Part shown: positions 1,264 through 11,798 of the stretch, piece after piece | How the letters are laid out: each line of letters begins with the position of its first letter | Position numbering within the stretch: the first letter of the stretch is position 1 | The notes under the pieces: generated by a model | The model's database searches: none | What the model saw: the letters and a program-made list of their open reading frames with translations, nothing else | Told to the model about the DNA's origin: nothing | Origin: a virus | IMG/VR virus record: IMGVR_UViG_3300027499_000005 | Location: 11,643 to 75,642 of that record | DNA length: 64,000 nucleotides | Strand: one strand, 5' to 3' | Program-made: the position numbers and the translations under genes

Positions 1264-1340
1264 TTGACGATCCCTTGACAACAAAACGCTTGCGGCTGGC
1301 AACCTCCTAGGCTATAATGATTGGGTCAGCGGGCGATGGG
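1264..1340 (+). promoter_or_regulatory. class I composite sigma70 promoter, copy 1
   Basis: TTGACG 1264, TTGACA 1275, TTGCGG 1290, 17-nt spacer, TATAAT 1313. Confidence 0.85.
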
Positions 1341-1362
1341 GCCACGACAGCGGAGGCAACGA

Positions 1363-1791
1363 ATGTCGCAACCTAAAATGGTACTCGGTTCTGACGGAAC
1401 AAAGCGGTGGTATCTAAATGGCAAACTCCATTGTGAGGATGGACCGGCTGTTGAATGGCCTAACGGAGAAAAGCATTGGTATCTCAACGGCAAACTCCAT
1501 CGTGAAGATGGTCCTGCTATTGAATGTGCTAACGGAAGAAAGTGCTGGTATCTCAACGGTAAAAAGCACCGTGAAGATGGACCTGCTGTTGAGTGGCCTG
1601 ACGGCCAAAAGGAATGGTTCCTCAAAGGAAAACTCCATCGTGAAGATGGACCCGCCGTTGAGCGTTCTAACGGATCAAAGTTTTGGTATCTCAACGGCGA
1701 AGAAGTCACTTGGAAAGAAGTCTTTCAACAAGCAAAAGGTGACTTGGAAAAGGAATGTCGGATTCTAACTTACGCCTTGGCAAATGGATAA
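1363..1791 (+). CDS. HREDGPA (MORN-like, 23-aa) repeat protein A
   Basis: Four 69-bp repeats of WYLNGKLHREDGPAVE; GGAGG RBS at 1352-1356 supports ATG 1363. Confidence 0.85.
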   Translation: MSQPKMVLGSDGTKRWYLNGKLHCEDGPAVEWPNGEKHWYLNGKLHREDGPAIECANGRKCWYLNGKKHREDGPAVEWPDGQKEWFLKGKLHREDGPAVERSNGSKFWYLNGEEVTWKEVFQQAKGDLEKECRILTYALANG

Positions 1792-1794
1792 ACA

Positions 1795-2148
1795 ATGTCG
1801 CAACCTGAAATGAAAGTTGATTCTGACGGAACAAAGCAATGGTTCCTCAACGGCGAAAGGCATCGTGAAGATGGACCTGCTATTGAGTATCCTAGCGGAT
1901 CAAAGTGGTGGTATCTCAACGGCAAATACCATCGCGAAGATGGACCCGCTATTGAATATCCTAACGGAGAAAAGCAATGGTATCTCAACGGCAAACTACA
2001 CCGTGAAGATGGACCTGCTGTTGAATATCCTAACGGAACAAAGTATTGGTATCTCAATAACGAAGAAGTCACTTGGAAAGAAGTCTTTCGCAACGCAAAC
2101 GGCGACTTGGAAAAGGAATGTAGGATTCTAACTTATGCCCTAACATAA
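1795..2148 (+). CDS. HREDGPA (MORN-like, 23-aa) repeat protein B
   Basis: Three repeats; N- and C-caps (MSQP..., EEVTWKEVF...GDLEKECRILTYAL) shared with protein A. Confidence 0.85.
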   Translation: MSQPEMKVDSDGTKQWFLNGERHREDGPAIEYPSGSKWWYLNGKYHREDGPAIEYPNGEKQWYLNGKLHREDGPAVEYPNGTKYWYLNNEEVTWKEVFRNANGDLEKECRILTYALT

Positions 2149-2179
2149 TCTATTTACTCAAAACCTATTTGGAGGCAAA

Positions 2180-2338
2180 ATGTCCAAGAAGCAGAAACAA
2201 CCAAAAGAACGCTCGCTTATTGCGCTTGGAATGATCCTCCGAACGGGAAACCACGCGGGCAAACATCATAACCGCGATTGGGATGTTGAGAAAGGCAAGT
2301 CCCGAAAGCAAAAGCATAGGAAAAACTATGACGGTTGA
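2180..2338 (+). CDS. 52-aa basic peptide with an ArfA-like C-terminal motif (speculative)
   Basis: Read manually, not in the ORF track: MSKKQKQPKERSLIALGMILRTGNHAGKHHNRDWDVEKGKSRKQKHRKNYDG; GGAGG RBS at 2171. Confidence 0.65.
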   Translation: MSKKQKQPKERSLIALGMILRTGNHAGKHHNRDWDVEKGKSRKQKHRKNYDG

Positions 2339-2531
2339 GAAGGGCGATCTGTTTAGGTTCAAAAGCGAAGTTTATCACAACGACTTGTTTATCATTCTTG
2401 GTAAAAAGGAAGATTTACCTTATGTTGACGGAAAGTATGGCGAACCGTTTAGATACCTTGTGTTAGAAACAAGCGAAGAAGGTTGGGATTATTCTAGTTT
2501 TATCTTCGAACAAGCAGAAAAGATAGGATAA
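2328..2531 (+). CDS. small SH3/KOW-like paralog (GDL family)
   Basis: MTVEKGDLFRF...EKIG*. Confidence 0.75.
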   Translation: MTVEKGDLFRFKSEVYHNDLFIILGKKEDLPYVDGKYGEPFRYLVLETSEEGWDYSSFIFEQAEKIG

Positions 2532-2535
2532 ACTA

Positions 2536-2730
2536 ATGAAACCAGAAAAAGGTGATCTTTATTGCTGGAAGCGTAATGGCGATGTTTTCGTTATTCTCGG
2601 TTTGGAAGAAGATTTTTTTCACGGTAAAGAAAATCCAACAATAAAAGTAAACTATTTTTCTTTGCGTTACAATAAAAGGTTTTGGGATAGAGCGGCTTAC
2701 ATCATAAACAATGCCGATAAGTTAGGATAA
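2536..2730 (+). CDS. small SH3/KOW-like paralog (GDL family)
   Basis: MKPEKGDLY...DKLG*. Confidence 0.75.
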   Translation: MKPEKGDLYCWKRNGDVFVILGLEEDFFHGKENPTIKVNYFSLRYNKRFWDRAAYIINNADKLG

Positions 2731-2734
2731 ACCA

Positions 2735-2908
2735 ATGGAATTCCAAAAAGGCGATTTGGTTGCTATTGATGTTTCCGGTTGGTATCAAACAATCGGGATT
2801 GTTTTGGATGATGATCCTACACCTCGTCCTCACGGATTTACTGCCTTTGATCTTAAGAAACAAACAAAGTTATTTGTTCTTGTAAAAAACGCTAAAAAGA
2901 TCGCATAG
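2735..2908 (+). CDS. small SH3/KOW-like paralog (GDL family), 57 aa
   Basis: Read manually: MEFQKGDLVAIDVSGWYQTIGIVL...KKIA*; AGGA RBS. Confidence 0.75.
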   Translation: MEFQKGDLVAIDVSGWYQTIGIVLDDDPTPRPHGFTAFDLKKQTKLFVLVKNAKKIA

Positions 2909-2917
2909 GAAAACAAA

Positions 2918-3094
2918 ATGGAAATCAAACTTTACACCTTCCAAATGGGCGATTTGGTCCAATGCGGAAGCATCACCGGAATCGTCGTCAGGCATTATTT
3001 CGGTTGTAGTTCGTTAATGCCGATTGACTTTCGAAACATTGCAAATGGTTCGCTTTGCATGAGCCACGCCGAAAATCTCCAAAAACTTGGATGA
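2918..3094 (+). CDS. small SH3/KOW-like paralog (GDL family), 58 aa
   Basis: Read manually: MEIKLYTFQMGDLVQCGSITGIVV...QKLG*. Confidence 0.7.
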   Translation: MEIKLYTFQMGDLVQCGSITGIVVRHYFGCSSLMPIDFRNIANGSLCMSHAENLQKLG

Positions 3095-3098
3095 ATGG

Positions 3099-3302
3099 AT
3101 GAAATACCAAAAAGGTGATTTGATTAGATTCCAGTCGCACTACATGAGTGACGAGGAAAAAGGTCTTTTCTTGGTTATTGACTCCCACAAAACACAGGGA
3201 TACTATTGTTATTGTCTAAAAAGTGGACAACCGACAAAACAGTTAGAAGGAACTAGGGGATACCTTCCTTATTCTGTACCTTACGAAACATTCGAAATCT
3301 AA
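3099..3302 (+). CDS. small SH3/KOW-like paralog (GDL family)
   Basis: MKYQKGDLIRF... Confidence 0.8.
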   Translation: MKYQKGDLIRFQSHYMSDEEKGLFLVIDSHKTQGYYCYCLKSGQPTKQLEGTRGYLPYSVPYETFEI

Positions 3303-3318
3303 TAAAAGTAGGTGACTC

Positions 3319-3519
3319 ATGGCAATCTGTTATAAGTGTGGTGATGATTTCTCCGAAAAGAGGCTTTCCCTAGGTTACCGAACTTGCTTGGTTTGTGGCG
3401 ATAAGGAAGCAAATACCGAGGCAAATCGGCGGCGCAAGTGTGTCGCACCAGCCTACAATAAAGGTGCTTACATGTATGTTTCGAATGTATCTGATGCCAT
3501 GTTCGCTGGCAAAAAGTAA
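3319..3519 (+). CDS. C4 zinc-finger protein (DksA/TraR-type finger, no coiled coil)
   Basis: CYKCGDDFSEKRLSLGYRTCLVC matches the CxxC-x-RL-x-CxxC finger. Confidence 0.65.
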   Translation: MAICYKCGDDFSEKRLSLGYRTCLVCGDKEANTEANRRRKCVAPAYNKGAYMYVSNVSDAMFAGKK

Positions 3520-3524
3520 GTAAA

Positions 3525-3722
3525 ATGTTGGAACCTGTTTTCTACGAAATCTACAAAAAAGGAGATTTGGTCGAGATTTCTGCGATTTCTCCAAAAAGCA
3601 CCAAAATGTACGGAATCGTAAAATGCCTCAGTAGACACCACAAAAACTATTATCGAGTGAAAGTATTCGGCATTCATCGTGATGTTTTTGCTGGTGCCGA
3701 CCAAATGAGACGTATAACCTAG
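3525..3722 (+). CDS. small SH3/KOW-like paralog (GDL family)
   Basis: YKKGDLVEI...YGIVKCL. Confidence 0.7.
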   Translation: MLEPVFYEIYKKGDLVEISAISPKSTKMYGIVKCLSRHHKNYYRVKVFGIHRDVFAGADQMRRIT

Positions 3723-3756
3723 TTTTTTCTTTGCTGTCAAAAAAAGGTCAAGGCGT

Positions 3757-3785
3757 TTGACGGTGGCCGCTTGATCGGATAAGAT
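3757..3785 (+). promoter_or_regulatory. sigma70-type promoter
   Basis: TTGACG 3757, 17-nt spacer, TAAGAT 3780; in an intergenic gap upstream of ATG 3812. Confidence 0.7.
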
Positions 3786-3811
3786 GTGTAGGAAAGGGAG
3801 CGAGGACCAAA

Positions 3812-4039
3812 ATGGAAATCGGAACGCTTTGTCGGCTTTCTAACTGCAACATTTACGTTGCGACAGAATATCGAGGTTTGACCTTGGTTGTTCTAGAACA
3901 TCAAAAGTTCCAACCTCTCAAAATCCCCGGTTGTCAGGAAATCCCAAGTAGAACCATGCTTACTTGCTTTGTGGTCGAAAAGAACGAAAAAACCATGTTC
4001 TTTGACTATCAACTGAGCGATGCCGAGGTTCTAGGATGA
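3812..4039 (+). CDS. small hypothetical (GTL variant of SH3-like family), copy 1
   Basis: MEIGTLCRLS...CFVVEKNEKTMFFDYQLSDAEVL. Confidence 0.75.
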   Translation: MEIGTLCRLSNCNIYVATEYRGLTLVVLEHQKFQPLKIPGCQEIPSRTMLTCFVVEKNEKTMFFDYQLSDAEVLG

Positions 4040-4227
4040 AGTTTGGAACGCTTTGTCGGCTTTCTAGCGATAGTATTTACCTTAGTAGGGATCATCATGG
4101 TTTGACGGTCATTGTCATGGAAGAAGGAAATCCTGCTAGCGGATTTTACTGCTTTGTCGTAGAAAAGTCCGAGAAACTTTGGTTTTTCGACTATCAACTC
4201 AAAGATGCCGAGGTTCTAAGCCAATGA
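4036..4227 (+). CDS. small hypothetical (GTL variant), copy 2
   Basis: MKFGTLCRLS...CFVVEKSEKLWFFDYQLKDAEVL; clear tandem paralog. Confidence 0.75.
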   Translation: MKFGTLCRLSSDSIYLSRDHHGLTVIVMEEGNPASGFYCFVVEKSEKLWFFDYQLKDAEVLSQ

Positions 4228-4499
4228 ACGACAAGTTTTGGGAAGAAGGCAAACTTTTCTCCTTTGAGGATACTGGCTCAAAGTTTTGGGCGATTATCAA
4301 GGGTTTTGTTCATTCCGACTATGGTAATAAGGTTCTGTTTACCATTTTCGCCCGAGAAGAATGGCGGCCAGCCGGTGATTTTAACTCGTTCTTTAATAAC
4401 GGATCCGATTACAAAGTCGGGCAAACCTACTCTTCTTCCAAACTCTGGCTTGTAAGCCGAATGTTGGACGGCTCGCCCGACTACGAGGAACAAACTTGA
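4224..4499 (+). CDS. hypothetical protein
   Basis: ATGA overlap start at 4224 (MNDKFWEEGK...). Confidence 0.6.
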   Translation: MNDKFWEEGKLFSFEDTGSKFWAIIKGFVHSDYGNKVLFTIFAREEWRPAGDFNSFFNNGSDYKVGQTYSSSKLWLVSRMLDGSPDYEEQT

Positions 4500-4555
4500 T
4501 TTTTCCTCCTCGTCAGCCAAAGTTTTGCAACTAATCTAAAACAAAGGAATAACCA

Positions 4556-4795
4556 ATGACTTTCGAAGAGTTCATCGATTTCTACGATAAAGAGGCTACG
4601 AACCCCGAGAACTACAATCTTCGGCGTGGCCAGTTGCTTTTCACGATCCTTCGCGAAGTGCGCCCCGATCTTTCCGAAAAGATCCGTTCTACCTCGCTAG
4701 ACCCTTTCTACCTTGATTCTTCGCTTCCGGTCTGCTGGCTCTACCTAAAGAACAACTGGCAAAATCAAGGTTCGCAGTCCCTTTGTTGGCCTTGA
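4556..4795 (+). CDS. hypothetical phage protein
   Basis: AAGGA RBS; RRGQLLFTILREVRPDL...DPFY pattern. Confidence 0.7.
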   Translation: MTFEEFIDFYDKEATNPENYNLRRGQLLFTILREVRPDLSEKIRSTSLDPFYLDSSLPVCWLYLKNNWQNQGSQSLCWP

Positions 4796-4880
4796 CGATC
4801 CCTTGACAAGAAAACGCTTGCGGCTGGCGACGGCCTAGGCTATAATGAATGGGTCAGCGGGTGATGGGCACCCGTCAAAC
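4792..4880 (+). promoter_or_regulatory. class I composite sigma70 promoter, copy 2
   Basis: TTGACG 4792, TTGACA 4803, TTGCGG 4818, 17-nt spacer, TATAAT 4841. Confidence 0.85.
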
Positions 4881-4904
4881 CAACAGCGAAAAAACGAGGA
4901 ATAA

Positions 4905-5705
4905 ATGGCTTACAAGCGTACTATCTACTGTCGGGCTTGCGGTTCTGCCGGTCATAACCGCTCTTCCTGCCCCCGCGAAAAGGCGCGCATCGAAGAACTG
5001 CGGGCAAACCACGGTTCCGACCATTGGCAAGTTTCGTCCTATGATCGTAAGCGTATGCGCTCTAAGGAACGGGCTTGCTCGTACTGTCAGGAACAGGACC
5101 ATAATCGTGTTTCTTGCCCGACTATGAAGGCCGACATGGATAAGATTCGTCCGCACATTTCGGCGTACCGTAGGGCTTTCATCGATGCACTTTGCAAGAT
5201 TGGTATGGTTCCGGGTACCATTGCCGTGCATAATCACGGCCAAGGTATCCGTAACATGTACCTTGTTGAGCGTATCAACTTCGAAGAGATCGACCTGTTT
5301 CTTCCGAGCCGGAATCCCTGCGTTGTTCGCGGCCTTTCGGTGACGGGCTTTGACGATAGCGAAGATTATCGTCGTCGCTGGTACATCAACGATACTGGCC
5401 TTCTCGGCTTTGCCCTTGATTCTACGTCGGCAATCGGCTATGATAACACTCCGCGTTATGATGACGTTGTTGCGGCTGGTTGCGCTGATTCTTTCCGCGC
5501 CTCTGTTCCAAAGGATTGGTTGGAGGCTAAGAATCTTTGTAAGACTCATTTCTCTAACACTCGTCAGTCTCGCGGTCGCAACGCTAAGAACGGACAATGG
5601 CTGATTAACGAGGTGGAAAGTGGAGAGTTTAGCCGAAAGGCCGAAAACCTGCCTTCCAACGTCGATAGGTTCTTGGACTTTAGCGGGCAGAATCCCTATG
5701 CGTGA
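4905..5705 (+). CDS. double CCHC zinc-knuckle protein
   Basis: CRACGSAGHNRSSC and CSYCQEQDHNRVSC (Cx2Cx4Hx4C); GAGGA RBS. Confidence 0.75.
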   Translation: MAYKRTIYCRACGSAGHNRSSCPREKARIEELRANHGSDHWQVSSYDRKRMRSKERACSYCQEQDHNRVSCPTMKADMDKIRPHISAYRRAFIDALCKIGMVPGTIAVHNHGQGIRNMYLVERINFEEIDLFLPSRNPCVVRGLSVTGFDDSEDYRRRWYINDTGLLGFALDSTSAIGYDNTPRYDDVVAAGCADSFRASVPKDWLEAKNLCKTHFSNTRQSRGRNAKNGQWLINEVESGEFSRKAENLPSNVDRFLDFSGQNPYA

Positions 5706-5735
5706 GAAGCCTAGGGTTTTCCTCCCTTCTCGCTC

Positions 5736-5823
5736 TTGACAATCGCTTGACAAGAAAACGCTTGCGGCTGGCGACCGCCTAGGCTATAATGATGGGGTCA
5801 GCGGGCGATAGTGCCCGCTGGCC
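5736..5823 (+). promoter_or_regulatory. class I composite sigma70 promoter, copy 3
   Basis: TTGACA 5736, TTGACA 5747, TTGCGG 5762, 17-nt spacer, TATAAT 5785. Confidence 0.85.
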
Positions 5824-5851
5824 AAAAAAACCAAAAGATAGGAAGAACCTA

Positions 5852-6163
5852 ATGAACACGAATGACTGGCAGATTATCAAGGATGATGCGCGCTTTCTCG
5901 TCGTTGGCGGGCACGATGTTGACTTCGAACTTGATTCCTACGAGGAAGCGGCTTCCTTCCTTGACTTCATGAACGAGGACGAGACTCGTAAGGAAGATCC
6001 TGACTTTTTCTTCGATGAGTGGTGCTACCTGCACTTCGAACTCCGCGCGCCGTCTTTCGATGAAAACGAAACGAACGACGAGCAAAACGAAGGTTCCTCC
6101 GAAATCGATTTCGAAGCGGAACTTGGCGAGGTTCTTTCGTACCTCGGCGTTAGCACGGTCTGA
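5852..6163 (+). CDS. highly acidic small protein
   Basis: D/E-rich (MNTNDWQII...DENETNDEQNEGSSEIDFE); AGGAAG RBS. Confidence 0.7.
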   Translation: MNTNDWQIIKDDARFLVVGGHDVDFELDSYEEAASFLDFMNEDETRKEDPDFFFDEWCYLHFELRAPSFDENETNDEQNEGSSEIDFEAELGEVLSYLGVSTV

Positions 6164-6177
6164 AAAAGGTAGGAACA

Positions 6178-6255
6178 ATGCTCACAATCGCTAAGATTTT
6201 CTTTGCCCTTTGCATTTTCGACGTTGCCTTTAGACTCTGGAGAATGCCAGAATGA
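6178..6255 (+). CDS. 25-aa hydrophobic micropeptide
   Basis: MLTIAKIFFALCIFDVAFRLWRMPE; upstream AAGGTAGGAACA; stop overlaps the next ATG. Confidence 0.55.
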   Translation: MLTIAKIFFALCIFDVAFRLWRMPE

Positions 6256-6590
6256 ACCTAGACAATCCGAATCAAGAAACTCGCTTGGTTGTTTCTTGCC
6301 CTCCGGTTATGCTCGCTCCAAGGGACGGTTTCCGTTTGGCGGGTTGCTACGGTACTTGGATTAGTGTCCCGGCCCACACGAAAATCGAGGATCTTTCTCG
6401 TTACTTCATCGTTCGCCCCTATGGCGCACCCCCGCCGGAAAGCAGGGTAGAACCTAAGACTTTGACCGTCGCTGGTTCTCGCGGAGGAACCTACACCGTT
6501 CGACTGCGTGAAAACGGGCAAACAACCTGCACTTGTCCCGGCTTTGGTTACCGTCGCACTTGCAAGCATCTAACTCTTCTTTCGGCATAA
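6252..6590 (+). CDS. SWIM zinc-finger protein
   Basis: CTCPGFGYRRTCKH (CxC-x-CxH) at the C-terminus. Confidence 0.75.
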   Translation: MNLDNPNQETRLVVSCPPVMLAPRDGFRLAGCYGTWISVPAHTKIEDLSRYFIVRPYGAPPPESRVEPKTLTVAGSRGGTYTVRLRENGQTTCTCPGFGYRRTCKHLTLLSA

Positions 6591-6600
6591 GGTAGGAACA

Positions 6601-6672
6601 ATGGACACTTTCATCCTGTTCGTAGTTTTCGGCTTTTTCTCGTTGATGGCTTTCCTTAGCGTTCCCGAGTAA
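6601..6672 (+). CDS. 23-aa hydrophobic micropeptide
   Basis: MDTFILFVVFGFFSLMAFLSVPE; same upstream AAGGTAGGAACA as at 6178. Confidence 0.55.
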   Translation: MDTFILFVVFGFFSLMAFLSVPE

Positions 6673-6694
6673 GGTACAACCTAATCTTTCAGCC

Positions 6695-6775
6695 TTGACG
6701 AACGCTTGACAAATCGTGACTTGCGGACGCTCGCCGCCTAGGCTATAATGTACGGGTCGCTGGATGAACCAGCAC
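6695..6775 (+). promoter_or_regulatory. class I composite sigma70 promoter, copy 4
   Basis: TTGACG 6695, TTGACA 6706, TTGCGG 6721, 17-nt spacer, TATAAT 6744. Confidence 0.85.
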
Positions 6776-6793
6776 CACTAACGGAGTCAACGA

Positions 6794-7663
6794 ATGAACG
6801 CCAAGAATCGCAAGAACACCGAGAATACCCCGACGACCCGCCGCTTTCAGGCACTCTTCGATAGCGGGCTTTTGACCGACCGTGACCGCTCGTTCCTTGA
6901 TAGTCTGCTTTCTTCCTACAAGCGTTCGGGTTCGCTCACCGCTGGTCGCCGTCAAGCCTTGGAAAAGGTTGAGGCTCGCATCCAAGAAACGAGGAACAAC
7001 CCCGTTTCTGTCGATACCGCTACGGAAACGCGGCTCAATGGCCTTCTTTCGTCGGGTGCGTTGGATTCTTGGGCTACTACCTTTGTTTCCTCGCTCCTGT
7101 CGCAAGTGAAGGTTGGACGTACTCTTTCGGCTGCTCAAACTGCACACCTCGTCAAAATCGAAGGAAAGATCAAGGCTAACGCCGACTTTGCTTCGACCTA
7201 CGACGATGCCGCTCGTACCTTGTTTTCCAAGGCTGTCAACTACTACCGTTCTACCTCGTACTTCAGCGATGTTGTCGCTAAGCACGATTCGGACTCCTCT
7301 TTCGTCCCTCCTGCGATTGTTTTCGAGAAGATGACGAACAACCCCTACTTTCGGAAGGTTCTTGCTGCTATGGAAGAACCGGCAAAGTTCTCCGATGGGG
7401 ACATTGTGCGCCTTGGAACTTTGAGCGGGGAAAACGGGCGTTCGACTTGGGTCAGGATTAGGGAGGCTCGACGCGGCGATCTCGGCCAGTCGATGCACAC
7501 CTACGATAAGGCTGGTGCTACCGTCATTCGTGGCATGGTGCTGAAAAGCGAGGGAAATCCTGTCGTCTCGGCTGTCAAGGGCGGGAAGCAGTATTCGGTT
7601 CTCTTCTTTGGGGCTTCTACGCCGGTTTTGGTTGAGGAGCGTTGGCTTCGGCGTTCTAAGTGA
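6794..7663 (+). CDS. hypothetical protein (289 aa) with an internal repeat and a possible C-terminal SH3-like domain
   Basis: GGAG RBS; the segment FLDSLLSSYKRSGSLTAGRRQAL recurs as FVSSLLSQVKVGRTLSAAQTAHL; C-terminal FSDGDIVRL. Confidence 0.8.
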   Translation: MNAKNRKNTENTPTTRRFQALFDSGLLTDRDRSFLDSLLSSYKRSGSLTAGRRQALEKVEARIQETRNNPVSVDTATETRLNGLLSSGALDSWATTFVSSLLSQVKVGRTLSAAQTAHLVKIEGKIKANADFASTYDDAARTLFSKAVNYYRSTSYFSDVVAKHDSDSSFVPPAIVFEKMTNNPYFRKVLAAMEEPAKFSDGDIVRLGTLSGENGRSTWVRIREARRGDLGQSMHTYDKAGATVIRGMVLKSEGNPVVSAVKGGKQYSVLFFGASTPVLVEERWLRRSK

Positions 7664-7736
7664 ACAATCGCCAAATCGAACATTTTCGAACAAATGCGTT
7701 CGACGGCTTGACCGTCCGGCCCGGATGCGATAAGAT
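7662..7736 (+). promoter_or_regulatory. class II sigma70 promoter with TCGAACA upstream repeats
   Basis: TCGAACA at 7676 and 7686; TTGACC 7708, 17-nt spacer, TAAGAT 7731. Confidence 0.7.
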
Positions 7737-7775
7737 GTAGGGGTCGCTGATGATAGCGGCTAACGCGGGGTTCGC

Positions 7776-7853
7776 ATGGACAAGGCTCTTATGGTAGGTT
7801 CTCTCTCTCTTTCTCTTGTCTCTGGCTTCCTTTGCCTCTTTTGGGGCCTCTGA
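7776..7853 (+). CDS. 25-aa hydrophobic micropeptide
   Basis: MDKALMVGSLSLSLVSGFLCLFWGL; weak GGGG RBS. Confidence 0.45.
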   Translation: MDKALMVGSLSLSLVSGFLCLFWGL

Positions 7854-7887
7854 TTCACAAACCGACTAACTGATGAGGTATAACGTC

Positions 7888-8004
7888 ATGAACTTCACGA
7901 TCATCGCCATTTCCGGCTTTGTTTCTGCTCTTTCGGCTTTGGTGCTTGGCTCCATCGCTTTCGCAACCGTCGCCGAAATCGGCATTGTCCTTACCACCAT
8001 CTGA
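7888..8004 (+). CDS. 38-aa hydrophobic micropeptide
   Basis: MNFTIIAISGFVSALSALVLGSIAFATVAEIGIVLTTI; GAGG RBS. Confidence 0.55.
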   Translation: MNFTIIAISGFVSALSALVLGSIAFATVAEIGIVLTTI

Positions 8005-8017
8005 TAAGAGGGCTACA

Positions 8018-8104
8018 ATGGACCTTTTCGACCGTCTTTTCTTCACCGCTCTCGGCATGGCCGAGGTTGCTACTTTCGTCCTTGGCTTTGGAAGCATCTG
8101 CTGA
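8018..8104 (+). CDS. 28-aa hydrophobic micropeptide
   Basis: MDLFDRLFFTALGMAEVATFVLGFGSIC; GAGGG RBS. Confidence 0.55.
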   Translation: MDLFDRLFFTALGMAEVATFVLGFGSIC

Positions 8105-8134
8105 TAACCAAGGTCTAACCAACGTCAACGCGCC

Positions 8135-8230
8135 TTGACAATCGCTTGACAACTAAACGCTTGCGGACGACAACCGCCTAGGCTATAATGAATGGGTCAG
8201 CGGGTGATGGACACCCTACGGTCTGACTCA
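8135..8230 (+). promoter_or_regulatory. class I composite sigma70 promoter, copy 5
   Basis: TTGACA 8135, TTGACA 8146, TTGCGG 8161, 17-nt spacer, TATAAT 8184. Confidence 0.85.
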
Positions 8231-8290
8231 CGGGACAAACGGCAATGTCGCCGTCCCCATCCAAAACAACGTAGTTTCCGAGGTTCTAAC

Positions 8291-9448
8291 ATGGCTATCG
8301 ACTTCTCCACCGCTTCCAAGGCTCTTCCCTACGTCGCAGCGGCGCGTCATCCTATCCTTTGGCGCGGTCGTCACGGTATCGGCAAGTCTGAGGCTATCAA
8401 GGCTTTTGCCGCTTCTATCGGGCTTCCCATCGTTGAGCGTCGCGCCGCACAGTTGCAGGAAGGCGACCTTTTGGGGCTTCCTTCGCCCACTATGGTTGAG
8501 GTCAACGGCGTTGAGGCTGCACAGTTGCGCCCCTTCGCGTGGCTTATCAAGGCTTGCACCGAGCCTGTCGTTCTCTTTCTTGACGAGGTTGATCGCGGCA
8601 CTTCCGAGGTTCGTCAAGGTATCTTCCAACTTTGCGATTCTCGCACGGTTGGCGATTGGCGGCTTCACCCCGACACTATCATCGTTGCAGCCGTGAACGG
8701 CGGCGAGAATGCCTCCGAGTACCAAGTTGGCGAGATGGATCCTGCGGAGTTGGACCGCTACACGACTTTTGACGTTGCTCCGTCCGTTGACGATTGGCTT
8801 TCGTGGGCCGGTGGCGAGAACGATGCTTCGTCCGTTGCTTCTGCCTTCGCAGCCATTCGCTCGTCGGTTGACAGCCGCGATAAGTCCGGTTCGCCCATCG
8901 ATTCGCTGATTGTGGACTTCATTCGTCAGAATCCGTCGCACTTGGAACACCGCGATACCTTCGAGCCTAACAAGGTTTACCCGTCGCGCCGTTCTTGGAA
9001 GCGTCTGAGCGATACGCTGGTTGCAGGCCGTCTTTTGGACGATGCCAAGGCTAACCGTGGTCTTATCGCTTGCCTTACCACCGCATACGTCGGGTTGGAG
9101 GCTTCTGTCGCATTCTCCGACTTCGCGGCCAACTATGAGCGTCAGGTGACTGCCGAGGAGATTATCAATGCCGGAAAGTTGGCTCGCGTGGCCGACTTTG
9201 GCGTGGTCGAGCATACCGCGCTTGTCGGTAAGATGAAGGATTCGGGTATCTTCAAGAGCGTGCTTTCCCCTGCACAGTTGAAGAACTTGGCGAACTACAT
9301 CACTCTTCTTCCTTCCGAGGTTGCAATGGTGCTTTTCGCTCACATCCCTGTCGCTGGCGATACCGGTCCTGCGAACATCGGCGCACTCTACAAGACTAAG
9401 GCCGACAATGGCAAGACCGTGCGTGAGTTCATCGTGAGCCTCATGTGA
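8291..9448 (+). CDS. MoxR-type AAA+ ATPase
   Basis: Walker A GRHGIGKS, Walker B LFLDEVDR, MDPAELDRY and PSRRSW motifs; GAGG RBS. Confidence 0.9.
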   Translation: MAIDFSTASKALPYVAAARHPILWRGRHGIGKSEAIKAFAASIGLPIVERRAAQLQEGDLLGLPSPTMVEVNGVEAAQLRPFAWLIKACTEPVVLFLDEVDRGTSEVRQGIFQLCDSRTVGDWRLHPDTIIVAAVNGGENASEYQVGEMDPAELDRYTTFDVAPSVDDWLSWAGGENDASSVASAFAAIRSSVDSRDKSGSPIDSLIVDFIRQNPSHLEHRDTFEPNKVYPSRRSWKRLSDTLVAGRLLDDAKANRGLIACLTTAYVGLEASVAFSDFAANYERQVTAEEIINAGKLARVADFGVVEHTALVGKMKDSGIFKSVLSPAQLKNLANYITLLPSEVAMVLFAHIPVAGDTGPANIGALYKTKADNGKTVREFIVSLM

Positions 9449-9470
9449 TAAGCGGCGACCAACGCCCACT

Positions 9471-9501
9471 AAGCCCAGCCTAACCCGCTGGGCTTTCTTT
9501 T
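9471..9501 (+). terminator. intrinsic terminator
   Basis: AAGCCCAGC-N7-GCTGGGCTT followed by TCTTTT. Confidence 0.85.
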
Positions 9502-9550
9502 ATCCACGTTCTTCCTCGATAGTACTACGCTTGTCAGAACCCGAGTTTAG

Positions 9551-9990
9551 CAAGGAGATAGCTGGTCTTTCGGGTACCAACGGAGAGGCATCTAGCAGCC
9601 GTTCTGAGCGAGCCTAGACGCTAGGGCTACCGTGAGCCACCTAGGCCACCCTAACGCGCTCCTAGAGCCGTTCTAGCCCGTCCTGCGGCGGTTCCCGCCC
9701 TAGCCTTGACGCTCGCCGTTCTAGCCGCTGGACGTTGACGCCGCCACCGACGACTGATAACTATTCAGGATCTACCTTGCATAGAACCAAGCCCTCTAGG
9801 ACTGCAAACTGCAAAGGATAAAGCCTGACTTTGGAGTACCAACGGAGAGGCGTCTGACAGACGTTTGGAGCGATCCTCGACGCTAGGGCTATCATGAGTC
9901 ACCCGAGCGTCTAGGGCGTCTGCTAGGGCCGTCTGAGAGCGTTTTATAACGTGTCCTGCGGTTGTTCGGGCTAGCCGTCAACCTCGCCAC
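9551..9990. repeat. imperfect direct repeat (period 262 bp) in a CTAG-rich non-coding spacer
   Basis: 68-nt cores at 9574 and 9836 match at 57/68 positions; 13 CTAG sites in 9592-9974. Confidence 0.85.
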
Positions 9991-10090
9991 CGAGCCAGCA
10001 GCACCAATGGAGCAACGCCGATTTTCAGGGTTCACAAACGCTTGACAACCCCTTTGCTCGTCCACCTAAACCAAAGACAAGGAAGGAAGG

Positions 10091-10166
10091 GAACAATAAC
10101 CAAATCGAACAACTTCGAACAATCGCTCCCGGCTTCCTTGACGCTGCGAGCGTAGCCGGTTACATT
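10091..10166 (+). promoter_or_regulatory. class II sigma70 promoter with TCGAACA upstream repeats
   Basis: TCGAACA at 10105 and 10115; TTGACG 10138, 17-nt spacer, TACATT 10161. Confidence 0.7.
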
Positions 10167-10226
10167 ATGGGGGACGGTAATCCTTCCGTTATTCGCGGCT
10201 CAACCAAACAACCAAGGTACAAACTG

Positions 10227-11528
10227 ATGACCGCAACTTCTCCTGCTCCTATGCCGACTTTCGACATGAACCTGCACATTCACAAACTCATGCTGAAAGA
10301 GCCGTTTTTCGCCGCTATTTCGCGACGCATGAACAAGGTCGCTACTACCTCCATTCCTACCGCTGGCGTCCGTGTCAACCCCGATTCGCTCGCGTTGGAA
10401 ATGGCTTACAACCCTGCTTTCTTCAACCGGCTTGTGGCGGAACACGCTGATTTTGTCGGTTCTATGAAGGTTAAGGAACGCAAGGCTTACGCTTCTGCTC
10501 ACCCCGGCGATAATGGCGAGGTTGATCCTTACGTTTGGGTGCGTGGCGTCCTGTTGCATGAGTTGTATCACATTGTCTTTGGTCACATTACCGAGCGTTT
10601 GCCCGATGGTACCATGACTAAGAAGTGGAACCATGCGACGGACCTTGCTATCAATAGCAACCTTCAAGGTCAACTTCCGTCGTACTGCCTCATGCCCGGT
10701 GTTGGCGAATACGCTGATTTGCCCCTTGGCAAGTCGGCTGAGTTCTATTTCCGTTCCATCGTGGACCCCGAGGAGAAAAGCAAGGATCAAAGCCAACAAG
10801 GTCAAGGTCAGCAGGGTCAAGGTGATGGTCAAAATGAAGGTCAAATCGATGACCATTCCGGTTGGGGCGACCTTCCCGACGACGTAAAGGACGCTGCAAA
10901 GGAAGCAATGCGTCAGATTACGGAGCAAGCGGTCAATGAGGCAAACGGCAACTCGCAAGGTTGGGGGTCGGTTTCTGCTTCTATGCGTGAAAAGATCCTT
11001 GATTCTATCCGTGTCAAGGTTAACTGGCGCGCACACTTGCGTTATTTCGTAAAGACCTCGATGAAGGCCGATAAGCGCACTTCTATCTTCCGTATCAATA
11101 AGCGGTTTCAGTACGTTCATCCGGGAAAGAAGGCTAGCCGTACTGCTAAGATTGCAATCTCTATCGACCAGTCGGGTTCGGTGGATGATGGGCTTCTTAC
11201 TGCCTTTTTCTCGCAACTGGATTCCCTCGCTCAGATTGCGGAGTTCACGGTTGTTCCCTTTGATACTCACGTTGACGATTCCAAGGTTTACGTTTGGAAG
11301 AAGGGCCAACATCGCAAGGTTGAACGTGTGCTTTGCGGTGGCACCGACTTCAATGCGCCCACCAAGTGGGTCAATGAACGCAACTTTGATGGTCACATCA
11401 TTTTGACCGATTTGGAGGCCCCTATTCCGGTGTCCAGTAAGTGTCAGCGTATGTGGATGACGGATAAGTCCTGCTACAACCGTCGTTCCTTCAACATCAA
11501 TGAGCGAATCATCGTTATCGAAGGATAA
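10227..11528 (+). CDS. metallopeptidase-like + vWA domain protein (DUF2201-type MoxR partner)
   Basis: LLHELYH (HExxH), WNHATDLAINS, Q/G-rich linker, MIDAS IDQSGSV, GGTDF, ILTDL. Confidence 0.88.
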   Translation: MTATSPAPMPTFDMNLHIHKLMLKEPFFAAISRRMNKVATTSIPTAGVRVNPDSLALEMAYNPAFFNRLVAEHADFVGSMKVKERKAYASAHPGDNGEVDPYVWVRGVLLHELYHIVFGHITERLPDGTMTKKWNHATDLAINSNLQGQLPSYCLMPGVGEYADLPLGKSAEFYFRSIVDPEEKSKDQSQQGQGQQGQGDGQNEGQIDDHSGWGDLPDDVKDAAKEAMRQITEQAVNEANGNSQGWGSVSASMREKILDSIRVKVNWRAHLRYFVKTSMKADKRTSIFRINKRFQYVHPGKKASRTAKIAISIDQSGSVDDGLLTAFFSQLDSLAQIAEFTVVPFDTHVDDSKVYVWKKGQHRKVERVLCGGTDFNAPTKWVNERNFDGHIILTDLEAPIPVSSKCQRMWMTDKSCYNRRSFNINERIIVIEG

Positions 11529-11582: not shown

Positions 11583-11798
11583 ATGAGGTATAAGAAAGGC
11601 ACCTTGCTCCGTGGTATCTCAAACGAGTATACTGAAAACTTCGTTTTGATCGAGAGTTACGGAATGCATAAGTCAGACGTTTCCGGTAATGAAGCACCAA
11701 TCTATCATTTTTTTATCTTGGATGAAAACATGAAACGAGATTGGCACTACGCTACCTACGTTGAGTCAGATAACGTCTTTGTTCAGGTTGTACCATGA
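11583..11798 (+). CDS. SH3/KOW-like array gene 1
   Basis: MRYKKGTLL... Confidence 0.75.
   Translation: MRYKKGTLLRGISNEYTENFVLIESYGMHKSDVSGNEAPIYHFFILDENMKRDWHYATYVESDNVFVQVVP

Follow-up and report, generated by a model that had tools for sequence, protein, structure and literature searches.

Paired TTGACA boxes upstream of predicted sigma70-type early promoters in an uncultured clade of T4-type phages

Introduction

The usual signature of response regulators of the OmpR/PhoB family is a pair of identical hexamers, directly repeated at an 11-bp period and located just upstream of the -35 element, and hexamer-N5-hexamer examples from this family include the Bacillus subtilis PhoP site (TT(A/T/C)ACA-N5), the Escherichia coli Pho box and the cre tag (TTCAC-N6-TTCAC). 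In the E. coli Pho box, CTGTCAT repeats on the coding strand take the place of the -35 element, 10 bp upstream of the -10 element, and the cyanobacterial HLR1/RpaB site consists of (G/T)TTACA(T/A)(T/A) repeats with a 10-bp period. Upstream (UP) elements are A/T-rich subsites at about -42 and about -52 that are read in the minor groove by the C-terminal domain of the RNA polymerase alpha subunit (alpha-CTD). T4 middle promoters lack a -35 element and instead carry a MotA box, TGCTT, whose centre is at -30 and which is separated from the -10 element by 11-13 bp, and cyanophage Pho boxes are an example of phage promoters that embed sites for host transcription factors. Here we analyze five copies of a composite element, TTGAC(A/G)-N5-TTGACA-N9-TTGCGG-N17-TATAAT, in a 64,000-nt window of viral DNA (positions 11,643 to 75,642 of IMG/VR record IMGVR_UViG_3300027499_000005; "window" refers to this whole stretch) from a phage of an uncultured T4-type lineage. 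The copies are predicted to be sigma70-type early promoters whose two upstream TTGAC boxes form a bipartite site for a separate protein.

Promoters of phages phi29 and Nf embed Spo0A boxes (PMC2731898). T4-type phages carry promoter/stem-loop cassettes termed PeSL (Arbiol et al., 2010, PMC2839356; Comeau et al., 2014, PMC4122927), which contain no TTGACA pair and have a stem-loop and an AT-rich stretch 5' of the -35 element (PMC4122927). The response regulator CenR is an essential cell-envelope regulator conserved in alphaproteobacteria, with basal activity when unphosphorylated. Its sites in Rhodobacter sphaeroides, mapped by chromatin immunoprecipitation sequencing, read TGA-N8-TGA, and 28 of the 31 are co-directional and located directly upstream of the -35 element of activated operons (Lakey et al., 2022, PMC9275681).

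Five exact copies of the composite element

A pattern search finds the element at 1264, 4792, 5736, 6695 and 8135 of the window, all on the plus strand and with no mismatch, and none of 100 dinucleotide-preserving shuffles matches the pattern even when three mismatches are allowed. The five exact copies with fixed spacing that an earlier sequence-only reading of this DNA had described are thus recovered in full. As that reading had also pointed out, CCTAGGC-TATAAT terminates all five cassettes, and in none of them is either upstream box followed by a -10-like hexamer at a distance of 17 nt. The hexamers TTGCGG and TATAAT are separated by 17 nt in 5/5 copies and all sites are co-oriented with the genes, the arrangement of sigma70-type promoters. 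The motif scan of the whole genome that the same reading had proposed reveals a sixth, diverged copy at genome positions 9311-9365 (window -2331, 2.3 kb before the window), with TTGCAA as its -35 hexamer and GCTAGGC preceding TATAAT, and about ten further promoters in which the box pair lies 10 bp closer to the -35 element. We refer to the latter as class A and to the five copies in the window as class B. The original description is therefore correct, and incomplete in that it lacked these further family members and the predicted transcribed leader described below.

When the copies are aligned with their flanks, the similarity starts at box 1 and runs about 30 nt beyond TATAAT, and the conserved block downstream of TATAAT is predicted to be transcribed as a leader. 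A hairpin lies within a few nucleotides of the predicted 5' end in 4/5 leaders; the stem sequences differ while the position is kept, and compared to shuffled sequences the stability is significant only for the hairpin at 5797-5822 (z = -5.1). A terminator-like hairpin followed by a T-run lies just 5' of cassette 1 (1227-1250), and such an upstream hairpin is clear at only one of the five cassettes. Rfam and tRNA scans of the window show nothing at the cassettes. The 147-kb genome contains four copies of the 8-bp palindrome GCCTAGGC (window 4833, 5777, 6736 and 8176), all of them at -20 to -13 of a class-B copy. Across the genome, CTAG shows no avoidance (524 sites, 544 expected). The palindrome may be an operator, or a mere part of the duplicated cassette. 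In two true metatranscriptomes, near-identical fragments of the early region are present as contigs, and one RNA contig spans a cassette.

Two other promoter types were considered for the cassettes and rejected. CTGGCA or CTGGCG in the spacer recalls sigma54, and it is present in only 3/5 copies and the -12 element is missing. The arrangement also differs from that of a MotA-dependent T4 middle promoter: GCTTGCGG lies at -37 to -30, the GCTT motif is at least 19 nt from the -10 element, and the -35 hexamer sits at the canonical N17 spacing.

The third box as the -35 element and the constraint on boxes 1 and 2

To assign the -35 element, sites were selected in two ways. Among 185 unique sites picked on the three boxes alone, TAnnnT is found 16-18 nt after box 3 in 166, with a spacing of exactly 17 nt in 138 and a TG at -15/-14 in 91. 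The third box is thus a good -35 element with a -10 element at N17 in the relatives, which supports the assignment of TTGCGG as the -35 hexamer made from the sequence alone. Conversely, when promoters were anchored only on an extended -10 and a plausible -35, and each box was allowed at most one mismatch, both boxes were found in exact register in 201 of the 242 promoters (83%). Several of the remaining promoters have a pair shifted by 1 nt, and the rest lack the pair and carry A-tracts at about -46 to -38. In pair-less clade promoters (L001, L111, L047, L077 and others), a perfect TTGACA -35 follows the A-tract, as in AAAAAACAC, again at about -46 to -38. These A-tracts resemble a proximal UP subsite, suggesting that the pair may fill the role of an upstream activating element.

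The information content of each box was tabulated only where the other two are present. The -35 box contains 7.9 bits (T1 2.0, T2 1.7, G3 1.9, A4 1.2, C5 0.9, A6 0.25), a classical sigma70 profile. Boxes 1 and 2 contain more, 10.3 and 11.0 bits, respectively, and their weight lies on T2, A4, C5 and A6 (near 2 bits each), while position 1 tolerates C, A or G and position 3 tolerates T or A. G occupies position 3 in 87-94% of the boxes and T in 1-10%, and C5 is nearly invariant. The flanks are also conserved, with a C before each box, T/T after box 1 and A after box 2, giving the consensus cTTGACAw. That the boxes are more and differently constrained than the -35 element argues against recognition by sigma region 4 and for a separate sequence-specific protein.

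The class-B copies of this genome lack the TG; their -35 is TTGCGG, their spacer G+C-rich, their TATAAT perfect and their leader long, whereas most relatives combine the boxes with TTGAC(T/A/C/G) and an extended -10, TGnTATA(A/T)T. TTGCAA, TTGTAA and TTGCGA occur as minority -35 variants elsewhere in the clade. The weak -35, which the sequence-only reading had taken as a defining trait, therefore does not characterize the class as a whole, and TTGCGG is a variant local to this genome. Because their -35 is degenerate and they lack the TG, the class-B copies studied here probably depend more on the upstream element than their relatives do.

Geometry and the two registers

The spacer between the two boxes is N5 at 360 unique sites, N4 at none and N6 at 12, and the period is strictly 11 bp. 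Relative to the start of the -35 element, TTGAC starts are found at -26/-15 (263 and 275 sites), at -25/-14 (21 and 16 sites) and at -16/-5 (11 and 13 sites), and almost nowhere else. The -16/-5 register corresponds to class A, TTGACA-N5-TTGAC directly followed by TTGACA-N17-TATAAT, in which the pair abuts a perfect -35 element. With the -10 element placed at -12 to -7, the class-A pair occupies -51 to -46 and -40 to -35, and the class-B pair occupies -61 to -56 and -50 to -45. In this genome, about ten class-A promoters lie between genome positions 108 and 11,562, and one more lies at 137,291. Several of them directly precede tRNA genes: one -10 element ends at genome position 2569 and tRNA-Leu starts at 2592, and another ends at 10341 and tRNA-Lys starts at 10355. 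This placement provides independent context evidence that the class-A sites are promoters. The early region at genome 2592-10427 (L015) holds twelve tRNA genes in all, several of them 14-45 nt past a class-A -10 element.

Two registers 10 bp apart, a fixed 11-bp period and a fixed orientation resemble a protein site that faces RNA polymerase from one side of the helix. The upstream boxes are thus predicted to be a separate functional element, as had been proposed, and the geometry fits a tandem-binding activator site of OmpR/PhoB type. Taken together, the promoter reading, the -35 assignment and the separate, phase-locked predicted protein-binding pair are well supported by sequence, geometry, conservation and gene context.

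Occurrence in the clade

The source record is a single contig of 147,374 bp with 41.7% GC and nearly all genes on the same strand. It encodes a T4-type gene set, including portal (gp20), major capsid protein (gp23), sheath and large terminase, together with a Mre11/Rad50-like fusion, a DnaB-type helicase and PhoH. All isolates are distant by gp23: the nearest, Microcystis phage Mel-JY01, is 38% identical, Rhodothermus phage RM378 is 32% identical, and the Flavobacterium 'immuto' phages are 49% identical over only part of the protein. Near-identical DNA is present in about 15 metagenome studies of freshwater, estuary, river, wetland, soil and subsurface samples. At genome 144600-145841 (L019 11701-12942), a fragment of a B12-dependent ribonucleotide reductase precedes an intein splicing domain.

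A scan of IMG/VR for the full geometry found three other contigs. The three full records and this genome contain 25 sites on a single strand, compared to none for the reversed pattern used as a control. When the three boxes alone were searched (TTGACA-N5-TTGACAA-N8-TTGAC), at least 120 stretches were found in IMG/VR, and many of the matches listed have 3-7 copies inside about 10 kb. Five complete genomes scanned in full each carry 6-13 co-oriented copies in one 10-13-kb block at the genome end, with no match in the control, and a sixth complete genome, G001, has three copies near one genome end. These six motif-bearing genomes are 168-204 kb long and their gp23 proteins are 65-71% identical to that of this phage; in one of them (G006), the gp23 homologue (contig 119272-121131) contains one in-frame TAG. 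The clade spans marine and fresh water.

The box pattern with a minimal -10 element matches only twice, as expected by chance, in 596 Gb of bacterial and archaeal genomes, and the box pair is absent from Mel-JY01. Because the clade genomes carry the architecture while cellular genomes and Mel-JY01 do not, it marks one uncultured T4-type clade, and it is predicted to be the main early-promoter class of that clade. The premise of cyanophage phosphate control that the sequence-only reading had drawn on has no support, as the nearest isolate by gp23 lacks the motif. Cultured phages gave no match to the early region in a nucleotide search, and the promoter and the early gene module were found in no cultured phage searched. 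A search of the literature for a triple TTGACA promoter found no description. The class as it occurs across the clade was thus not found described in the literature or the cultured phages searched; it appears to be a variant of activator-dependent sigma70 promoters and PeSL-like cassettes.

Early genes downstream of the cassettes

The features of the early region are listed in Table 1. Window 4-11.5 kb is a GC-rich stretch; recent horizontal import was considered as the simplest reading of it and rejected, and the stretch, with clade-conserved core genes amid AT-richer ORFans, is the conserved early core of the clade and not an obvious foreign island. The core module (window 4905-11528; L002 1340-5746) comprises the zinc-knuckle protein, in some cases the SWIM protein, p289, the AAA/AAA_5 ATPase and the DUF2201 protein. 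Dozens of related contigs carry it, and cultured phages lack it (best tblastn match 25% identity). Among the fetched loci, homologues of the zinc-knuckle protein number 22, of SWIM 31, of p289 47, of AAA 56 and of DUF2201 61, and the other early open reading frames (ORFs) have no homologues there save isolated single-locus matches. PADLOC gives no match of note for the core genes.

Table 1. Predicted promoter cassettes, leader hairpins and early genes in the window
Feature	Position in window	Strand	Details
Cassette 1, class B	1264..1318	+	box 1 1264-1269; box 2 1275-1280; -35 TTGCGG 1290-1295; -10 TATAAT 1313-1318
Cassette 2, class B	4792..4846	+	box 1 4792-4797; box 2 4803-4808; -35 4818-4823; -10 4841-4846
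Cassette 3, class B	5736..5790	+	box 1 5736-5741; box 2 5747-5752; -35 5762-5767; -10 5785-5790
Cassette 4, class B	6695..6749	+	box 1 6695-6700; box 2 6706-6711; -35 6721-6726; -10 6744-6749
Cassette 5, class B	8135..8189	+	box 1 8135-8140; box 2 8146-8151; -35 8161-8166; -10 8184-8189
Leader hairpin, cassette 2	4857..4875	+	5'-proximal, 7-bp stem
Leader hairpins, other cassettes	5797-5822, 6759-6773, 8196-8227	+	equivalent; the hairpin of cassette 1 is weak
First gene after cassette 1	1363..1791	+	ATG at 1363 behind GGAGG; located in the stretch that is hypervariable among metagenomes
Zinc-knuckle protein, 266 aa	4905..5705	+	two CCHC zinc knuckles (weak Pfam matches); downstream of cassette 2
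SWIM zinc-finger protein, 112 aa	6252..6590	+	Pfam SWIM; downstream of cassette 3, with a small ORF
p289	6794..7663	+	helical repeats and a small SH3/KOW-like barrel (AlphaFold2, predicted local distance difference test (pLDDT) 83); downstream of cassette 4
AAA ATPase (AAA/AAA_5)	8291..9448	+	Pfam; downstream of cassette 5
DUF2201 protein	10167..11528	+	Pfam; metallopeptidase-like and VWA-like domains; last gene of the conserved early core

A pair-bearing promoter lies within 330 nt upstream of the AAA orthologues in 53/53 loci and of the zinc-knuckle orthologues in 12/12 loci, and such promoters are also found upstream of the p289 orthologues in 29/42 loci. As the downstream proteins are merely 30-50% identical, the position and architecture of the promoter are old. 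The cassettes are accordingly placed to drive, as we predict, the conserved early genes of the clade, namely those for the zinc-knuckle protein, p289, the AAA ATPase and the DUF2201 protein. The ATG codons of the longest ORFs at 8192, 5789 and 1321 sit inside or right after the -10 element, 5' of the expected transcription start, so the true starts are likely at 8291, 5852 and 1363. Relatives of the AAA protein align only from residue 20-36 onward.

Homogenization and variation around the cassettes

At the 56 non-box positions, identity within a locus is 0.492 compared to 0.415 between loci, and none of 1000 permutations reaches the within-locus value. The class-B copies of this genome show a mutual identity of 0.655 (up to 0.875), compared to 0.354 with all others. 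Metagenome assemblies break at cassettes, and one variant runs from window 1767 straight into class-A promoter sequence. Just past cassette 1, at window 1380-2400, metagenome contigs reach 3-8 times the depth of the flanks and many joints skip forward or go back; this is a hypervariable or multi-variant stretch. Variation in gene content near the cassettes is visible only as contig joints and one loose end. Contigs also skip about 1.2 kb at window 2901-4141 (runs X2 and X3) and at 9334-10569 (run X2), and natural variants may lack or replace these segments.

The data fit cassettes that have been duplicated or gene-converted within the genome, with a 5' hairpin leader, like PeSL elements. Homogenization cannot account for the identical boxes across genomes, because the spacers there share nothing. 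Like PeSLs, the cassettes are repeated sigma70-type early promoters in a plastic early region, homogenized per genome, flanked by ORFans and candidate substrates for shuffling. They differ from PeSLs in the hairpin, which lies upstream in PeSLs and is clear at that position in one of the five cassettes here, and in the upstream module, which is conserved across the clade and not per genome. The recombination cassette suggested by the sequence-only reading is partly supported by the homogenized spacers and by the variant junction at a promoter.

Discussion

We propose that the five copies are sigma70-type early promoters with a bipartite upstream site that is probably read by a host regulator of OmpR/PhoB type, a reading that we consider somewhat better than an even bet. 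According to this proposal, RNA polymerase would use TTGCGG as the -35 and TATAAT as the -10 element, and we infer a transcription start about 7 nt after TATAAT. The box pair, with its high information content, would bind a sequence-specific protein distinct from sigma region 4, most likely a head-to-tail dimer of a winged-helix response regulator supplied by the host. In class B, the bound reader may recruit or stabilize RNA polymerase through the alpha-CTD, while in class A it could act through alpha or sigma region 4.

The likeness to tandem OmpR/PhoB sites lies in identical direct half-sites one helical turn apart, near or abutting the -35 element and dependent on the helix face. The G at position 3 of the phage boxes is the one base excluded by B. 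subtilis PhoP, and the cre tag has a C there. The E. coli Pho box was considered as the site and excluded: the TGTCA cores lie on the opposite strand, a separate -35 element is present and is not replaced, the pair is located at -45 to -61 or -35 to -51, and the flanks differ, with T and not A before TGACA and A/T and not G after it. The part of the sequence-only reading that invoked an OmpR/PhoB-type activator is therefore compatible with the geometry, while PhoB itself is contradicted by the reversed cores, the position upstream of the -35 element and the flanks. The cyanobacterial HLR1/RpaB site was excluded as well, since the period here is strictly 11 bp and position 3 is mostly G.

The closest published motif is that of CenR of alphaproteobacteria, whose matrix reads T-G-A-C-(G/A)-N5-(G/T)-T-G-A-(C/A/T). 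The phage pair shares with it the direct repeat with an 11-bp start-to-start distance, the half-site TGAC(G/A) and the co-directional location upstream of the -35 element. In our implementation, which reproduces published scores within about 0.3, 16/16 pair sites of this genome score 8.8-10.5, compared to 7.1-10.0 for validated sites. All sites are co-directional, as CenR sites mostly are, and class A abuts the -35 element, whereas class B lies 10 bp further upstream. In the Sinorhizobium meliloti promoter PsrlA, the left CenR half-site is at -50 to -45 (PMC11328730), close to the -51 to -46 of class A. In addition, the core consensus of the clade, cTTGAC-N17-cTATAt, resembles the S. meliloti sigma70 consensus CTTGAC-N17-CTATAT (PMC2873474). 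The phage boxes are far more constrained than CenR sites (TTGACA plus flanks, 10-11 bits each).

Several results weigh against a host regulator of this kind. The CenR matrix is of low information, so that shuffled DNA often scores 7-8 too, and the preference for G3 and A6 as well as the flanking C and A/T of the boxes is left unexplained by it. The motif was not found in any cultured relative searched. Four T4-type phages of alphaproteobacteria (phiM12, Cr30, phiM9 and HTVC008M) contain no pairs, Atu_ph07 is not enriched for the pair, and a GcrA-like gene is absent from five clade genomes. p289, present in 6/6 complete genomes, is a candidate reader encoded by the phage or delivered with the virion. 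The nearest clusters of Hsp20 are viral and give no host signal. Because the matrix is weak and the host tests gave no support, CenR is a motif-level lead and not a finding, and its identity with the reader is quite unlikely.

A reader encoded by the phage, acting as an early feedback activator, a shut-off factor or a virion-delivered protein, is the most serious competitor, and we regard it as unlikely though well worth keeping in mind. phi29 p4, which holds or blocks RNA polymerase, offers a model for a shut-off factor. The architecture is phage-specific and essentially absent from the 596 Gb of cellular genomes, the clade lives in marine and fresh water so that its hosts may differ, and p289 has two internal helical repeats in addition to its presence in every complete genome. 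Yet most of the promoters combine a near-consensus -35 with an extended -10 and should fire without a phage factor, and the positions from -45 to -61 are typical of activators and not of repressors. No Trans_reg_C domain (the OmpR-type winged helix) is found in this genome, and the p289 model shows no match to a DNA-binding fold above noise, its generic helical-bundle and SH3/KOW-like similarities lying within noise. The SWIM and zinc-knuckle proteins were rejected as readers because they are not universal among the complete genomes: SWIM is present in 2/6, and the zinc-knuckle protein in 5/6, missing from G001, which uses the pair. The box consensus is also constant between sub-lineages, while co-evolving pairs of phage factor and site often drift.

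Direct contact with RNA polymerase, with the pair as an alpha-CTD UP-element analogue or a bending or wrapping signal and no separate factor, appears improbable. Like UP elements, including the upstream regions of T4 early promoters, the pair lies at -40 to -60, has two subsites about 11 bp apart, tolerates a displacement of one turn and would strengthen early promoters, and the pair-less promoters carry their A-tracts at the proximal UP position. The alpha-CTD sites studied by Estrem et al. (1998/1999), however, are reportedly A/T-rich, read in the minor groove and of modest information, whereas the pair is a G/C-containing repeat with 10-11 bits per box in which the G and the C are fixed, as is typical of sites that a helix-turn-helix protein reads in the major groove. 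An UP element was thus rejected on composition, G3 and C5 being nearly invariant, in spite of its matching position. Host promoters should moreover show the pair if polymerase itself read it, yet the full architecture occurs at chance level in cellular genomes. It is very improbable that the boxes are extra sigma70 region-4 sites in a loading, reservoir or decoy array, as the sequence-only reading had also entertained, even though the consensus of both boxes equals the textbook -35 TTGACA. The -35 element keeps TTG and relaxes positions 4-6, whereas the boxes keep T2 and ACA and add conserved flanks; this difference in base-by-base constraint argues against the idea, a reservoir needs neither a strict 11-bp period nor two fixed registers, and no -10 element lies 16-18 nt from either box. 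Least credible of all is a purely recombinational conservation, in which the boxes hitch-hike on PeSL-type mobile junctions and have no role in transcription. The homogenized spacers and leaders, the variant joining window 1767 to a class-A promoter and the assembly breaks at cassettes are what it would produce, but the boxes are fixed across genomes with fully diverged spacers and with downstream proteins of 30-50% identity, and gene conversion within a genome cannot produce fixation across genomes. The absence of the TTGACA pair from published PeSLs (PMC4122927) and the single clear upstream hairpin among the five cassettes also argue against it.

A host-read pair would place these phages beside others whose promoters carry sites for host transcription factors, in that a lytic phage would wire its early transcription to a host regulator. 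Compared to the Spo0A boxes of phi29 and Nf and to cyanophage Pho boxes, the motif is different, the lineage is uncultured and the site is present at about 83% of the strong early promoters clade-wide. The upstream modules known for phage early promoters are mostly UP elements rich in A/T or, in individual model phages, occasional sites for host factors. The module described here, a direct repeat of 17-18 bp that is tighter than the -35 element, is confined to two helical registers at hundreds of promoters from many marine and freshwater metagenomes, and it implies a specific DNA-binding protein that would act in the first minutes of infection. The cassettes also represent a variant of the shuffling cassette, PeSL-like, with a core conserved across genomes and the remainder homogenized within each. 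That about 80% of the early promoters in this abundant and globally distributed clade are hard-wired to one essential host response regulator of CenR type is a speculative extension with little probability at present; if true, the motif would name the host lineage, the alphaproteobacteria, and phage early transcription would depend obligately on the signaling state of the host cell envelope. As a clade marker, the module provides a simple signature for locating early regions and genome ends, and it may provide a handle on the host, since a bacterium whose regulator binds TTGACA-N5-TTGACA would be a host candidate.

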